A DNA stretch of 64,000 nucleotides from Ruminococcus flavefaciens. Its GTDB lineage: Bacteria; Bacillota; Clostridia; Oscillospirales; Ruminococcaceae. This document shows positions 15,548 through 44,775 of the stretch, one piece after another. The notes under the pieces are model-generated. The model ran no database searches. It saw only the letters and a list, made by a program, of their open reading frames with translations, and had not been told where the DNA came from. A program made the translations under genes and the position numbers. How positions within the stretch are numbered: position 1 is the stretch's first letter; the number at the start of each line of letters is the position of its first letter. Location of the stretch: NCBI GenBank assembly GCA_946624075.1, contig CAMORW010000001.1, forward strand, positions 157,437 through 221,436, in the 5' to 3' direction.

Positions 15548-15644
15548 TAAGCAGCGTGACGCTGCACCATTGATCGCGGCATTTTTTATGAACGTCAAGT
15601 TTTTTTGCGCGTCTCTTGCTATTTTATTCACTATATGTTATAAT
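15548..15644 (+). repeat. Solo copy of the 94-bp dispersed element, inverted relative to the 43670 array; contains a TTGCTA-N17-TATAAT promoter
   Basis: Aligns by hand to the reverse complement of array unit 1 with about 10 mismatches and 1 indel over ~96 nt. Confidence 0.9.
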
Positions 15645-15680: not shown

Positions 15681-16913
15681 ATGATAACTTACGATAATGC
15701 TAAAAATATTCTCAGCAATTATGGTCAGGAACACGTCCTGAAATACTACGAATCACTCTCCGATACCGAAAAAAGCGATCTCCTTTCGCAGATCGAACAG
15801 ACCGACTTCTCGGTGCTCGATAATCTCAGCAAAGATAAGGATATCCGTGCTTCACGCGGAGAATTCGCTCCGCTCGGTGCAGTAACTATAAATGATATCG
15901 CTGCTAATAAAGACAGGTATGAACAGGTCGGTCTCGATGCTATCAAAGCCGGCAAAACTGCTGCTGTCCTTCTCGCCGGCGGTCAGGGCACACGTCTCGG
16001 TTTCGATAAGCCCAAGGGCATGTTCAATATCGGTGTAAACAGAGAACTCTTCATTTTTGAATGCCTTATCAACAACCTTATGGATGTTGTCAAAAAAGCA
16101 GGTGTGTGGATACCGCTCTATATCATGACAAGTGAAAAAAATCACGATGACACTGTCGGGTTCTTCAAAGAGAAGGATTTCTTCGGATATGACAGCGGTC
16201 ATGTTTTCTTCTTCATGCAGGATATGGCGCCGTCCGTTGACCACAGCGGCAAGGTGTATATGGAGAGCCCATCCCGCATCTCTCTTTCTCCTAACGGAAA
16301 CGGCGGCTGGTTCTCTTCACTCGTGCGTGCCGGCCTTCTGGAGGATATCCGCAGAAAAGGCATAGAATGGCTGAATATCTTCGCTGTGGATAACGTTTTG
16401 CAGCGTATCGCTGATCCGCTTTTCATAGGCGCTGTCATTGATTCAGGTATGCAGTCCGGCAGTAAGGTCGTTGCTAAAAGTACTCCGGATGAGCGTGTAG
16501 GCGTTCTTTGCCTTGAGGACGGTATGCCGTCTATTGTTGAATACTACGAGATGACCGACGAGATGCGCTCTCTGCGCAACGAAAACGGCGAGCTGGCGTA
16601 TAAGTTCGGCGTTATACTCAATTACCTGTTCAGTGTAGATAAACTGGTCGATATCCTCGACAGAAAGCTGCCGGTCCATATAGTCGAAAAGAAAATACCG
16701 CATATGGACGAAAACGGCATTTCAGTCGCACCTGATAAACCGAACGGCTACAAGTTCGAAAACCTCGTTCTCGATATGGTGCATATGCAGGACAGCTGTC
16801 TTGCGTTCGAAGTCGATAGAAGCAGAGAGTTCGCGCCTGTCAAAAACGCTTCAGGTGTCGATTCTGTTGACACTGCACGAGAGCTCCTTGCTCAGAACGG
16901 CGTTACATTATAA
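15681..16913 (+). CDS. UDPGP-family UDP-sugar pyrophosphorylase (UDP-GlcNAc pyrophosphorylase-like)
   Basis: LLAGGQGTRLG..PKG, YIMTS, PNGNGG, VDN.L, VEYYE, KFE..V.D; ATG 15681 after GGAGG. Confidence 0.9.
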   Translation: MITYDNAKNILSNYGQEHVLKYYESLSDTEKSDLLSQIEQTDFSVLDNLSKDKDIRASRGEFAPLGAVTINDIAANKDRYEQVGLDAIKAGKTAAVLLAGGQGTRLGFDKPKGMFNIGVNRELFIFECLINNLMDVVKKAGVWIPLYIMTSEKNHDDTVGFFKEKDFFGYDSGHVFFFMQDMAPSVDHSGKVYMESPSRISLSPNGNGGWFSSLVRAGLLEDIRRKGIEWLNIFAVDNVLQRIADPLFIGAVIDSGMQSGSKVVAKSTPDERVGVLCLEDGMPSIVEYYEMTDEMRSLRNENGELAYKFGVILNYLFSVDKLVDILDRKLPVHIVEKKIPHMDENGISVAPDKPNGYKFENLVLDMVHMQDSCLAFEVDRSREFAPVKNASGVDSVDTARELLAQNGVTL

Positions 16914-40527: not shown

Positions 40528-41190
40528 TCATTTGAAGGCAGTTCCGTCTGCACAGAGTATTGCTGTCCGGCGTATCTTCTCGGCAGAAAAAGGCACGGTC
40601 CCGGAATTCTTCAGTGCTTCGATGAAAAGCGCCGGATTGTAGTTGGTCTGTGTACCGGCAGGAAGACGCATAACCATGTCCACCGAGCCTGCCGTTTTTG
40701 TGCAGCTGACGACCTCCAGCTCCGGCTTGATATCCACCGTTTTTATGCCCTTCTTCGTCTTTTTCTCAATAAGTATGTTTTCGCCGGACATAAGCGCTTC
40801 AACGCCCTGCATCAGTGCTTCCGTATCTTCTGTCACAAGCGAGAAGCTGTATTCAGCCTGTGTTATGGCTGTTATCTTCTGCACCTGCTCTGCAACTGAC
40901 AGTATACGCATGCCTTCCGGCATTACAGCGTTGAGCCTGTCGCGTATCTCGTCCATGGACATGCTGTCATCAGTGATGTTGAAGTCAAGTATCTCGCAGT
41001 CACTCTCAAATCCAAGTGACAGTGCAAGTGCAAAGGCATAATACGGGTGAGGATTGAAGCCCTCTGTGTACCATATCGGCAGCTTCGAACGTCTGAATAT
41101 CCTCAGCATACAGCGGTTGAGATCAAGGTGTGATATATATTTCGCACGGCCTGTCTTTTCAAAAACTGCTCTTACTCTCAGCAAAAACAT
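40528..41190 (-). CDS. TIGR03936-family radical SAM-associated protein
   Basis: F.KTGRAKYISHLD..R...R..RRS.LPI.YTEGFNPHP; directly follows TIGR03960. Confidence 0.9.
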   Translation of the reverse strand: MFLLRVRAVFEKTGRAKYISHLDLNRCMLRIFRRSKLPIWYTEGFNPHPYYAFALALSLGFESDCEILDFNITDDSMSMDEIRDRLNAVMPEGMRILSVAEQVQKITAITQAEYSFSLVTEDTEALMQGVEALMSGENILIEKKTKKGIKTVDIKPELEVVSCTKTAGSVDMVMRLPAGTQTNYNPALFIEALKNSGTVPFSAEKIRRTAILCADGTAFK

Positions 41191-43019
41191 TCCCTCCCCA
41201 CTTTTTTATTGACTCCGCATCCGGAGCATCTCTGACGGCAGTTGGGCGTTGTGCGCGATTCATGTGCCGTCTTGTTTTCGCGTATCAGGAACGATTTTGT
41301 CACGAAATAGTCCAGATGATCCCAAGGGAGTATCTCGTCATATTCAAATCGGCGGTTGGCGTAGAATGACGGATCTATGCCGCATTCCTCAAATGCCTCA
41401 AGCCACAGCGGGAATTTGAAATGCTCTTCCCAGCTGTCGAATTTACAGCCTTTTTTCCATGCAGTGTATATCGAACGGCATAGCCTTCTGTCACCTTTGG
41501 CAAGTATGACTTCGAGCATGCTGACATCCGGATCGTGATAGCTCACCTTCACCTTCCTGCTCTTTACCGAATCAAGAAGCAGTTTCTGCTTGTGCTCTAT
41601 CATCTCACGGGTATCCTGAGGTTCAAATTCAAACGGTGTGAAGGGCTTTGGAACAAATGTGGCGCAGCTTATGGATACCTGCACGCCTTTTCCTTTAGGA
41701 CGGTCCTCGATGCTGTAGAACAGGTCGATTATCCTCTGGGCAAGTTCTGCTATGCCGACTATGTCTTCGTCAGTCTCTGTGGGAAGTCCCATCATGAAGT
41801 AGAGTTTTACCGCTGCATATCCGCCCTGGAATGCGATCTTGCAGGTGTTCATTATCTCTTCTTCCGAGACATTCTTGTTTATAACATCCCTCAGACGCTG
41901 GGTTCCGCCTTCTGCCGCAAAGGTCAGTCCGCTCTTGCGCACTTTCTTGATCTTTTCAAGCAGCGATTCCGAGAAATTATCCACCCGGAGTGAAGGAAGT
42001 GACAGATTTATCTTTTCATCCGCAGTATAATTTATAAGCTCAGTCAGCATGGGATCAATCTCGGAATGGTCGCTCGTACTCAGGGAAGCAAGTGATACCT
42101 CGTCATATCCTGTATTCTCACAAAGGCACTTGGTCTCTCTGCATATCGTATCAGTATGTTTCTCTCGGAAAGGTCGGTAAATAAAGCCTGCCTGACAGAA
42201 GCGGCAGCCTCTTATACAGCCTCTCAGGACTTCCACTGACACTCGGTCATGCACTATCTCGGTGAAAGGTACCACGAAATTCTCCGGATAATACACCTTG
42301 TCAAAATCCTTTATTATACGCTTGTGTATTATCTCCGGTGCTCCGTCGGTGACTTCGAGTTTTTCGATAGTGCCGTCCGGCTTATAGCTGAATTTATAGA
42401 AACGCGGAACGTATATACCTTCGATATGTGCTGCTCTGCGCAGGAATTCAGTCTTTCCTGCTCCCTGCTGCTTCATCTCCCAGTAAAGATCCATGAGTTC
42501 AAGATTCACCTCTTCGCCTTCGCCAAGAATGAAAATGTCAAAAAAGTCAGCAAGAGGCTCAGGATTACAGACGCAAGGTCCGCCGGCTACTACTATCTGC
42601 GTCAGCTCATCACCGCGCTCGGATGCAAATACCGGTATCCCGGCAAGGTCAAGCATGTTCAGCACATTGGTGTATGACAGCTCATACTGCATAGTAAAGC
42701 CTATAAAATCAAATTCCTTTATGGGGTCAAGGCTCTCCAGTGCGTACAGGGGAATGTCGTTTTCACGCATTATGGCTTCAAAATCCTCACCCGGCGCAAA
42801 ACATCTCTCACACCAGTAGTTTTCGCGCTCATTTGTCAGAGAATAGAGTATCTTCATGCCAAGGTGAGACATGCCTATGTCATAGGTGTCGGGAAAACAG
42901 AATGCAAATCTTACATCAACTTTTGATTTGTCCTTTATTATGCTGCCGACTTCTCCGCCTATGTACCTCGAAGGCTTCTGTACTTCAAGCAGATGCTTTT
43001 CTATCTTGTCTTTTAACAT
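41178..43019 (-). CDS. TIGR03960-family B12-binding radical SAM protein
   Basis: V.KPSRYIGGE, FPD.Y.IGMSHLG, RGCIRGCRFCQAG, LPSLR.D, C-terminal C..C..CG. Confidence 0.93.
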   Translation of the reverse strand: MLKDKIEKHLLEVQKPSRYIGGEVGSIIKDKSKVDVRFAFCFPDTYDIGMSHLGMKILYSLTNERENYWCERCFAPGEDFEAIMRENDIPLYALESLDPIKEFDFIGFTMQYELSYTNVLNMLDLAGIPVFASERGDELTQIVVAGGPCVCNPEPLADFFDIFILGEGEEVNLELMDLYWEMKQQGAGKTEFLRRAAHIEGIYVPRFYKFSYKPDGTIEKLEVTDGAPEIIHKRIIKDFDKVYYPENFVVPFTEIVHDRVSVEVLRGCIRGCRFCQAGFIYRPFREKHTDTICRETKCLCENTGYDEVSLASLSTSDHSEIDPMLTELINYTADEKINLSLPSLRVDNFSESLLEKIKKVRKSGLTFAAEGGTQRLRDVINKNVSEEEIMNTCKIAFQGGYAAVKLYFMMGLPTETDEDIVGIAELAQRIIDLFYSIEDRPKGKGVQVSISCATFVPKPFTPFEFEPQDTREMIEHKQKLLLDSVKSRKVKVSYHDPDVSMLEVILAKGDRRLCRSIYTAWKKGCKFDSWEEHFKFPLWLEAFEECGIDPSFYANRRFEYDEILPWDHLDYFVTKSFLIRENKTAHESRTTPNCRQRCSGCGVNKKVGRECFC

Positions 43020-43030
43020 ATTTCCTCCCG

Positions 43031-43423
43031 TTATCTCATGCTGCTATCGCTGAATCGCATAGGCAGAAGATCGTCAAGTCTGAAAAATCCGTTGGACAGC
43101 ACGATTATAAGATCACCGCGGCAGTATTCGCTGAGTACTTGCAGACATGCGCCGCAGGGTACACATGGCTTTGAAAAATCACTGTCGGAACTGCCTGCGA
43201 TCGCTATCGCCCTGAATTCGGATACGCCTTCGGACAGGGCTTTGAATATTGCAGTCCTCTCGGCGCAGACTGTGAGTGAATAGGAGGCGTTTTCTATGTT
43301 GCAGCCGGTGAAAATCCTGCCGTCAGCTGCAAGCAGAGCTGCTCCTACGCGAAAATGCGAATACTTGCTCCGGGAATACGCTGCCGCCCTGACTGCTGCG
43401 TCAAAAAGTTCGGTATTTGTCAT
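43031..43423 (-). CDS. cdd: Cytidine deaminase
   Basis: YS.FRVGAAL, GCNIENASY, CAER, PCGAC. Confidence 0.95.
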   Translation of the reverse strand: MTNTELFDAAVRAAAYSRSKYSHFRVGAALLAADGRIFTGCNIENASYSLTVCAERTAIFKALSEGVSEFRAIAIAGSSDSDFSKPCVPCGACLQVLSEYCRGDLIIVLSNGFFRLDDLLPMRFSDSSMR

Positions 43424-43427
43424 GTCC

Positions 43428-43631
43428 TCATCTGCCCTTTCCGACCTTTCGCTTCTTTCCGTCCGGTGTCATGATATATGTATTCTCAAGCTGCTGCATC
43501 AGGTTTCCGGTAACAGCTGCCCTGTATTCATTGCGCAGCTCGGTCTGCTCTGCCCTCTCTGCCTCGGTGAGACCTTCGGCTTTTGACTTCCTTGCAAGTT
43601 CGTTTATCCTGTCTATCTTTTTCTGATCCAT
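43428..43631 (-). CDS. DUF896/YnzC-family small protein
   Basis: I.RINELARKSK..GLT..E..EQ..LR.EY; ATG 43631 after AGGAG. Confidence 0.88.
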   Translation of the reverse strand: MDQKKIDRINELARKSKAEGLTEAERAEQTELRNEYRAAVTGNLMQQLENTYIMTPDGKKRKVGKGR

Positions 43632-43668
43632 GGTACTCTCTCCTGTTGAACTGAAATGTATTACAATT

Positions 43669-43697
43669 ATTATAACATATAGTGAAGAAAATGGCAA
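43669..43697 (-). promoter_or_regulatory. Sigma-A promoter inside repeat unit 1, facing the DUF896-cdd-radical SAM operon
   Basis: TTGCCA-N17-TATAAT with extended -10 TG. Confidence 0.7.
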
Positions 43698-43957
43698 GAG
43701 ACGCGCGAAAAAACTTGCCGATCATGAAACTATACCGCGTTCAAGGGTGCAGCGTCACGCTGCTTATAACATATAGTGAAGAAAATGGCAAGAGACGCGC
43801 GAAAAAACTTGCCGATCATGAAACTATACCGCGTTCAAGGGTGCAGCGTCACGCTGCTTATAACATATAGTGAAGAAAATAGCAAGAGATGTGCGGATAA
43901 ACATGCCGCTCATGAAACTATGCCGCGATCAAGGCGGCGGCGTCACGCCGCTTATAA
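43670..43957. repeat. Tandem array of three 94-bp units bounded by four TTATAA hexamers
   Basis: TTATAA at 43670, 43764, 43858 and 43952 (period 94); units 1 and 2 identical, unit 3 diverged. Confidence 0.97.
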
Positions 43958-44009
43958 TACATGTCCGCGCTCTTTTCAAGCCTTGCTCACGACATTTCAT
44001 CCCTGCTGC

Positions 44010-44038
44010 TTGCTATTTTATTCAATTTATGCTATTAT
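44010..44038 (+). promoter_or_regulatory. Putative fabG promoter resembling the promoter end of the repeat
   Basis: TTGCTA-N17-TATTAT with extended -10 TG. Confidence 0.6.
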
Positions 44039-44067
44039 TATATCACAATATAAATAAGGAGGATGTT

Positions 44068-44775
44068 ATGATAAGTAAGGCACTTGTTACAGGCGGCGCA
44101 GGCGGCATCGGCTCTGCAATATGCCGTAGTCTCGCTGAGAACGGGTACACAGTTTACGTCAGTTATTCCAGATCAAAGGACAAGGCTGAAGCCCTTGCAG
44201 CTGAGATAGGCGGATATGCTGTCTGCTTCGATGTATCCGATGCTTCGGAAGTCAGAAAGGCTGTTTCCGATATCGGCAGTATCAGTCTGCTGGTAAATAA
44301 CGCCGGGATATCGGTCGTCGATACCTTCGACCGCGTGGATGACAGCACTGCTCAGCGTATCCTCAGCGTAAACCTCACCGGCACTATGAACTGCTCACGA
44401 GCTGTACTGCCGGGAATGATCTCTGCTAAAGCCGGCTGTATCATCAACGTCTCTTCAATGTGGGGACAGGTCGGGGCTTCCTGCGAAGTCGATTACTCAG
44501 CTTCAAAAGCCGGTATCATCGGCTTTACCAAGGCTCTCGCCAAGGAGACTGCTCCATCAGGCATACGAGTGAATTGTGTCGCACCCGGATTCATAATGAC
44601 CGATATGAATGCCCATTTCTCTCCTGAAGATCTTGCTCTCATAAAAGAGGATATCCCTCTCGGGATCTTCGGCAGACCGGAACATGTTGCGGATGCTGTC
44701 GCTTTCCTCGCATCAGATAAAGCTGAATACATCACCGGTCAGATCCTCGCTGTAAACGGCGGAATGGTAATATAA
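44068..44775 (+). CDS. fabG: 3-oxoacyl-ACP reductase-like SDR
   Basis: TGGAGGIG, NNAG, NVSS, YSASK, VAPGFI.T; ATG 44068 after AAGGAGG. Confidence 0.85.
   Translation: MISKALVTGGAGGIGSAICRSLAENGYTVYVSYSRSKDKAEALAAEIGGYAVCFDVSDASEVRKAVSDIGSISLLVNNAGISVVDTFDRVDDSTAQRILSVNLTGTMNCSRAVLPGMISAKAGCIINVSSMWGQVGASCEVDYSASKAGIIGFTKALAKETAPSGIRVNCVAPGFIMTDMNAHFSPEDLALIKEDIPLGIFGRPEHVADAVAFLASDKAEYITGQILAVNGGMVI

Follow-up and report, generated by a model that had tools for sequence, protein, structure and literature searches.

A putative mobile promoter cassette, arrayed in tandem upstream of a DUF896 operon, in a Ruminococcus flavefaciens genome

A 64,000-nucleotide stretch of a Ruminococcus flavefaciens genome (the window; C1:157437-221436 of a 2.78-Mb genome in 70 contigs) contains, upstream of an operon that begins with a DUF896 gene, a tandem array that probably consists of three copies of a non-autonomous mobile promoter cassette of ~94-97 bp, inserted specifically at the -10 element by an enzyme other than a Y1 transposase. 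In the cassette a 6-bp GC hairpin (hairpin A) and the sequence ACCC are followed by a ~45-nt middle region, with a T-tract and CGCGCGTCTC, and then by a near-consensus σA promoter (TTGCYA, a 17-nt spacer with TRTG, and TATAAT). Iterated nhmmer searches of the whole draft genome find ~98 units of this family in 69 arrays of 1-4 units each. A first-pass annotation of the window, made from its sequence alone, had proposed an undescribed non-autonomous mobile element or amplifiable module that delivers a σA promoter, and had recognized that the idea would fail if there were no further copies. The ~98 units strongly refute that objection, and a gene-less, multi-copy module that brings a σA-type promoter to unrelated genes is supported. 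The family is apparently undescribed; a literature search by hairpin sequence found no paper.

The DUF896 array and the native -10 element

Tandem Repeats Finder reports the array as a period-94 repeat at 43670-43957 (3.1 copies, 93% matches, no indels, score 485), and by BLAST unit 1 matches unit 2 at 94/94 positions (Table 1), confirming the three head-to-tail 94-bp units, two of them identical, that had been described previously. On the minus strand each unit reads hairpin, ACCC, middle region and TTGCCA-17-TATAA. The hairpin of the distal unit differs from that of the other two in stem pair 3, which is altered on both sides, and so the earlier statement that the hairpin is kept through a double change is correct. 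The palindrome TTATAA was also said to mark the junctions. It is indeed present at 43670, 43764, 43858, and 43952, which is every boundary of the array, but it is a property of the window's sub-family only; other sub-families have CTATAA or ATATAA. The inverted copy reported elsewhere in the window (the solo unit of Table 1) does face a gene, and it is 88-89% identical to the array units. An artefact of assembly is excluded as the source of the array, because three units, with a distinguishable middle one, are found as well in an independent assembly of the species (GCA_002373775.1, L137).

Table 1. Features of the DUF896 locus and of the solo unit, in window coordinates
Feature	Position	Strand	Description
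Unit 1, gene-proximal	43670-43763	-	Hairpin, middle region and promoter core; sole unit with -10 completed to TATAAT
Unit 2	43764-43857	-	Identical to unit 1; -10 reads TATAAG
Unit 3, distal	43858-43951	-	~87% identical to units 1 and 2; variant hairpin GCGGCG/CGCCGC
Predicted active promoter	43669-43697	-	TTGCCA, 17-nt spacer, TG-extended TATAAT
Hairpin A of unit 1	43749-43763	-	GCAGCG-TCA-CGCTGC; 6-bp stem, 3-nt loop
Hairpin A of unit 2	43843-43857	-	GCAGCG-TCA-CGCTGC, same as unit 1
Hairpin A variant of unit 3	43937-43951	-	GCGGCG-TCA-CGCCGC
Native DUF896 promoter remnant	43951-43979	-	TTGAAA (43979-43974), 17-nt spacer, TATAA+G (43956-43951); from alignment with seven congeners
Operon served by array	41178-43631	-	DUF896 43428-43631, cytidine deaminase 43031-43423, radical SAM 41178-43019; Pfam families
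Divergent short-chain dehydrogenase region	44010-44775	+	Gene 44068-44775; own promoter TTGCTA-17-TATTAT (44010-44038), core-like, hairpin-less
Solo unit of cassette family	15548-15644	+	36 nt upstream of UDP-sugar pyrophosphorylase gene (15681-16913), whose ATG is at 15681; orientation opposite to the array

The position of the array relative to the native DUF896 promoter is revealed by comparison with other members of the genus. The intergenic distance between the divergent dehydrogenase and DUF896 is ~120 bp in seven other Ruminococcus species, and DUF896 is preceded there by the native promoter CTTGAAA-N-CATGnTAnAAT, in which TTGAAA is separated by 17 nt from TA.AAT. Alignment shows the CTTGAAA and -10 columns to be conserved in these seven congeners as well as in the sequence that flanks the array on its left; the array itself, of 282 bp, begins directly after the fifth base (TATAA) of the native -10 box. 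The pta locus presents a similar picture: congeners have TTGACTTT...TGTGATATAAT, and in the window's genome a decayed remnant of this sequence adjoins the unit on its upstream side. Among the 26 arrays that have no recognizable cassette core upstream, the consensus of the left flank is T-G-n-T-A-T-A-A, followed by the hairpin; an exact TATAA precedes the hairpin in 10-11 of the 26, against ~0.06 expected (a rough estimate that takes ~0.3 per base), and about half of the 26 flanks lack TATAA and have AA or TAA only. This consensus, together with the sub-family variants CTATAA and ATATAA, argues that the junction is an extended -10 box rather than a palindromic cleavage site. From these alignments it seems probable that the cassettes sit exactly in the -10 boxes of the genes' own promoters and replace them.

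The cassette core has the features of a near-consensus σA promoter: TTGCYA-17-TATAAT, a TRTG/-16 motif, and a T-tract upstream of the -35 element. The array agrees in sequence with the extended -10 class in its -35 element, spacer (16-18 nt), TG, TATAAT, and distance to the start codon, and we infer that it is active as a promoter. In a promoter scan its terminal promoter has 11 of 12 consensus matches, with the TG present, and its TATAAT is 37 nt ahead of the DUF896 start codon (43631). As had been claimed, TATAAT is completed at the outermost unit only. Unit 2 reads TATAAG because the hairpin of unit 1 comes next, and both internal junctions have this sequence. The critical bases of the -10 hexamer are A-11 and T-7. 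Since TATAAG lacks the T at -7, the internal units should be nearly inactive and only the last unit should fire, so that by its sequence unit 1 alone should drive the DUF896-cdd-radical SAM operon. The earlier suggestion that copy number tunes or phase-varies expression is thus left without support.

Metatranscriptome contigs, which give contig-level information on another family member, match pta exactly; all of them begin at the ATG or 3' of it, and none extends across the unit, which agrees with initiation downstream of the cassette. At the C17 array an RNA contig runs from the upstream gene across the hairpin, and therefore the hairpin is not an efficient terminator. The reading of the hairpin as a canonical intrinsic terminator is rejected on this ground and because the T-run is absent and a terminator scan finds none in the array. 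An Rfam scan of 43000-44500 with E values up to 10 gave noise only (18-20 bits vs gathering scores of 53-80), and folding of the whole unit (z about -1.2) revealed no global structure past the 6-bp hairpin.

On the other side of the array, the promoter of the divergent dehydrogenase (TTGCTATTTTATTCA...TGCTATTAT) resembles the cassette core of the solo copy and is unlike the native promoter of the congeners; it may be an older, decayed cassette.

A family of promoter units with fixed placement

Hairpin A is present in 57 copies in the genome, and a promoter core follows ~51 of these. Conversely, a strict pattern for the core finds 89 promoter cores, of which 48 are preceded by hairpin A and 13 by a different, type-B module (described below). 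The 3' ends of nearly all arrays are located 25-60 nt ahead of a same-strand Shine-Dalgarno sequence and start codon, and where an array lies behind a co-directional gene it points to the downstream gene in 17 of 17 cases. The genes that are served have little in common: of 37 downstream proteins scanned, 29 match unrelated Pfam families, including solute-binding protein, MscS, pta, P-type ATPase, glutamine synthetase, DAHP synthase, Ser/Thr kinase, ECF sigma factor, PPK2, and GGDEF, and 8 match none.

The fixed position relative to the transcription start, and the conservation of blocks upstream of the -35 element, are also what one would expect of an immobile regulatory module of a large regulon, in which the hairpin is a palindromic operator, CGCG boxes are factor sites, selection maintains the similarity, and the array is a local duplication. 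Yet the unrelated nature of the downstream genes, together with the fixed placement and orientation, favors a portable promoter over a regulon, and the orthologues in congeners have different native promoters. Furthermore, the 95-100% identity that is seen between distant loci covers non-motif positions, and the family includes arrays, truncated units, and alleles that differ in the presence or absence of a unit. One sub-family has a spacer that resembles a CodY box, but CodY is missing from the genome, and that reading was dropped. We therefore consider a regulon very improbable.

The portable promoters are organized in sub-families, which differ at the junction (TTATAA, CTATAA, or ATATAA) and in which TATAA, corresponding to the first five bases of the -10 element, is invariant. 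Each unit has one conserved hairpin, on its 5' side only; a second pairing found in the window's sub-family, GGCAAG-N15-CTTGCC, is absent in the other sub-families. Distal units within arrays have 5' ends that are cut back at variable points, some arrays combine units of different sub-families, and at several loci the upstream and downstream cores carry common locus-specific variants.

Two other arrangements of the promoter core were observed. In the type-B cassette of the window's genome (for example at C25:3180-3270, C21:28290-28375, and C44:1239-7546), a REP-like hairpin (GGCGGCGGAACGCCGCC) that has a GTAG-type head when read on the opposite strand is followed by a variable number of 7-nt CTAC-type repeats (TACTCTC, TACTCAC etc.) and then by the same promoter core. 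The type-B hairpin has 43 copies in the genome, some of them as inverted pairs, and the -10 box of type-B promoters is a frequent site of type-A units. At C7:99338-99425 a cassette promoter leads, within the next 45 nt, directly into a GC hairpin and T-run (CCCCGGAAG...CTCCGGGG TTTTTT) with no ORF, which may represent a short RNA or an attenuator leader.

Strain variation and routes of spread

The junction of TATAA with the hairpin is found in 35 copies in this genome, in 5 copies in R. flavefaciens ATCC 19208 (G023), and in 1-3 copies in 10 of the other 159 species of the genus that were searched. The difference between 35 junctions here and at most 5 in each of 160 congeneric species indicates a lineage-specific burst. 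Copying between loci has been recent. Of 38 array units, 23 are most closely related to a unit at a different locus, with identities of 95-100% in the closest of these pairs (100% for C12/C4, for instance, and 99% for a window unit and C33). The family is also polymorphic among strains. Unit numbers in same-species contigs, which are soft where they come from short-read assemblies because two metagenome contigs (L231, ERZ28653651; L265, ERZ12302817) are chimeric across the repeat, are 3, 2, and about 1 (one chimeric unit) at the DUF896 locus, 4, 2, and 1 at a response regulator locus, and 3, 2, and 1 at a phosphoribosyltransferase locus. A PAS locus has 1 unit and, in addition, an allele without the unit. 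The earlier view of an amplifiable module, for which a check of copy-number variation had been suggested, is thus borne out at three loci and by the PAS allele. In the two chimeric contigs the upstream flank of one cassette locus is joined to the downstream gene of another; cassette repeats break and mis-join short-read metagenome assemblies of this species. A further rearrangement is seen at an orthologous gene in two Ruminococcus species, where the same two cores surround hairpin A in swapped order (L232 of G023 and L233 of G139), suggesting that a longer ancestral array has been shortened in different ways in the two.

In the model that we favor, the cassette would enter the native promoter by hairpin-directed, -10-specific copying, giving the layout native ...TGnTATAA | cassette ...TGnTATAA | T. 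Because the cassette would then lie inside the native -10 box, the native -35 element and upstream control sites would be displaced by multiples of 94 bp, and the gene would be driven by the -35 element, spacer, and T-tract of the cassette from an unchanged -10 position. Since each copy recreates TGnTATAA at its 3' end, further head-to-tail landings would be possible, and unequal recombination between units would subsequently allow an array to grow or shrink. The enzyme responsible would be something other than a Y1 transposase. The TATAA repeat could represent a copied target, but the same five bases belong to the -10 of the cassette itself.

The search for such an enzyme bears directly on the proposal of the first-pass annotation that the units are HUH/Y1 substrates, that is, IS200/IS605-derived PATEs or REP/RAYT substrates that are cut beside the hairpin at TTATAA. 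This idea agrees with the location of a small hairpin beside an AT-rich junction, with the fixed orientation, and with the lack of terminal inverted repeats, as well as with the presence of Y1 transposases in 19 of 61 genus genomes searched and the abundance in the window's genome of the second, REP-like hairpin with its GTAG-type head. On the other hand, a search of the 95%-complete draft genome for PF01797 (Y1) gave nothing over the cut-off (the best match, of 20 bits, spans 22 model positions in a 55-aa open frame). Hairpin A, with up to 2 mismatches, is absent within ~1.5 kb of seven IS200/IS605 Y1 loci in congeners, where a check of whether such ends share the hairpin had been suggested, and three hairpin-A-rich species (G012, G019, and G001) have no Y1 match. 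Similar sub-terminal hairpins at both unit ends, which characterize PATEs, were looked for and only the 5' hairpin is conserved, and the genome contains no RAYT gene and no GTAG head or inverted doublets of hairpin A. In addition, the junction is the -10 box, (C/A/T)TATAA according to sub-family. A link to HUH/Y1 enzymes is consequently improbable.

Other classes of enzyme fared no better, as searches of the draft genome for IS110, DDE_Tnp_1, and TnpB gave nothing over cut-off, MITE-type terminal inverted repeats are absent (the unit ends AAGCAGCG... and ...TGTTATAAT are not complementary), and no family apart from one housekeeping oxidoreductase recurred when the ORFs located up to 1.5 kb from the hairpin at 115 loci of other genomes were clustered. 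Copying directed by the hairpin is favored within our model, because Y1, IS110, DDE_Tnp_1, and TnpB were not found, no gene recurs by the hairpin, and the hairpin with ACCC is widely shared. Tentatively, hairpin A might serve as the recognition module of a non-HUH, non-DDE system that copies ~95-bp cassettes into extended -10 boxes (TGnTATAA|T), in which case it would represent a class of mobile DNA that targets and replaces promoters.

The failure to find a transposase in the draft genome is also compatible with the main alternative, in which there is no dedicated enzyme and homologous promoter regions are spread and homogenized by host recombination. Gene conversion or unequal crossing-over would proceed through the hairpin block (~35 nt) and the promoter core (30-50 nt), and new sites would be seeded by rare template switches at the ~10-nt microhomology TRTGnTATAA. 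Mosaic units, the unit numbers that differ among strains, the variable 5' truncation of distal units, and the locus-specific variants common to upstream and downstream cores at several loci are all in line with this alternative; at the PAS locus, moreover, the upstream core is now of the cassette type as a result of conversion. The mosaic units and converted upstream cores show that homologous recombination also shapes the family, and it could explain more of the cassette spread than our model assumes. As the sole process, however, recombination would require dozens of seedings in one lineage at ~6-10 nt of common sequence (as at the DUF896 and response regulator loci), even though congeners with the same promoter consensus have at most 5 junctions, and it has no need for a hairpin that is conserved by changes on both sides. 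We judge it possible but rather unlikely, and prefer copying by a non-Y1 enzyme followed by unequal recombination.

Related elements and hairpin A in other genomes

The cassette shares features with several types of described elements. Putative mobile promoters (PMPs) are sequences with at least 80% identity over at least 50 nt located before unrelated genes of one genome, whose mode of movement is unexplained (Matus-Garcia, Nijveen, van Passel 2012; PMC3575422). The cassette family falls within this operational definition, its members reaching the required identity and length ahead of non-paralogous genes. PMPs, however, are a purely statistical class composed mostly of pairs, whereas the cassette family numbers ~100 units, forms tandem arrays, and has a hairpin, defined ends, and a fixed -10 landing. 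The Correia elements of Neisseria and other promoter-bearing MITEs are, like the cassette, small gene-less repeats that have σ70-like promoters and lie mostly just upstream of genes (PMC10969869). Those elements are bounded by terminal inverted repeats, duplicate a TA target, and are found in both orientations (PMC10969869), while the cassette has no terminal inverted repeats, a single orientation, precise replacement of the native -10, and head-to-tail arrays. The same MITE review names neither Ruminococcus, Clostridia, nor tandem arrays (PMC10969869).

A likeness to REP/BIME/REPIN sequences lies in the short GC-rich extragenic hairpin, its dozens of copies, and the occurrence of the hairpin A module in several repeat types across related genera. 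It differs from them in that no RAYT gene was found in the draft genome, hairpin A has no GTAG head or inverted doublets, and a promoter is joined to hairpin A in almost every case in this genome; a GTAG-like head and inverted pairs are, however, seen with the separate type-B hairpin. The PATEs of IS200/IS605 resemble the cassette in length (~100 bp), in having a hairpin near one end, in an oriented landing by a short AT-rich motif, and in the lack of a classic target duplication, but they need similar hairpins at both ends and TnpA(Y1), and tests for both of these in the draft genome were negative. Finally, Gram-positive extended -10/TRTG σA promoters have the same core as the cassette, which accounts for the working of the promoter but not for its repetition.

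If the model is correct, dozens of unrelated promoters in one rumen Ruminococcus lineage have been swapped for a single portable, near-consensus promoter, at genes that include pta, glutamine synthetase, DAHP synthase, kinases, a sigma factor, and transporters, and each swap would sever a gene from its native upstream control. Regulatory rewiring on a large scale by non-coding mobile DNA would then have a concrete example, one with defined junctions as opposed to a statistical class. The precise -10 landing, combined with the lack of a known transposase, points to an undescribed copying mechanism. The cassette is also a candidate strong promoter for Ruminococcus genetic tools.

The distribution of hairpin A is wider than that of the cassette. 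A search of 185,579 species representatives for the exact 29-nt pattern made up of the hairpin and TTGANCGCGG gave no match, and the 20-nt hairpin alone is found at more than 115 loci among species representatives. The hairpin with ACCC is common far outside the cassette family and heads other repeats in congeners. In R. flavefaciens ATCC 19208 (C1:154460-154611, L124), for example, a 65-bp tandem repeat of at least 3 units has an identical hairpin A at the start of each unit and no promoter core. In other Clostridia, the 20-nt hairpin with ACCC lies right after the CCA end of various tRNA/tmRNA-like genes and is followed by AAT and a canonical terminator, and at some loci the hairpin is directly 3' of a TAA stop codon (CCA-end or stop-adjacent loci: L011, L016, L021, L022, L031, L045, L048, L052, L058, L073, and L075). 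These positions suggest a widespread hairpin module, associated with 3' ends or adjacent to CCA/TAA, in Oscillospirales and Christensenellales. A further element of ~100 nt that is led by hairpin A, ACCC-GTCCACGTT...GTAAACTCGCT...GCTTTCGCTTACGGC, is conserved between species (C8:84265 in the window's genome; L009 and L060 in R. flavefaciens; L135 in G001), and could represent either a structured RNA or one more family of repeats.
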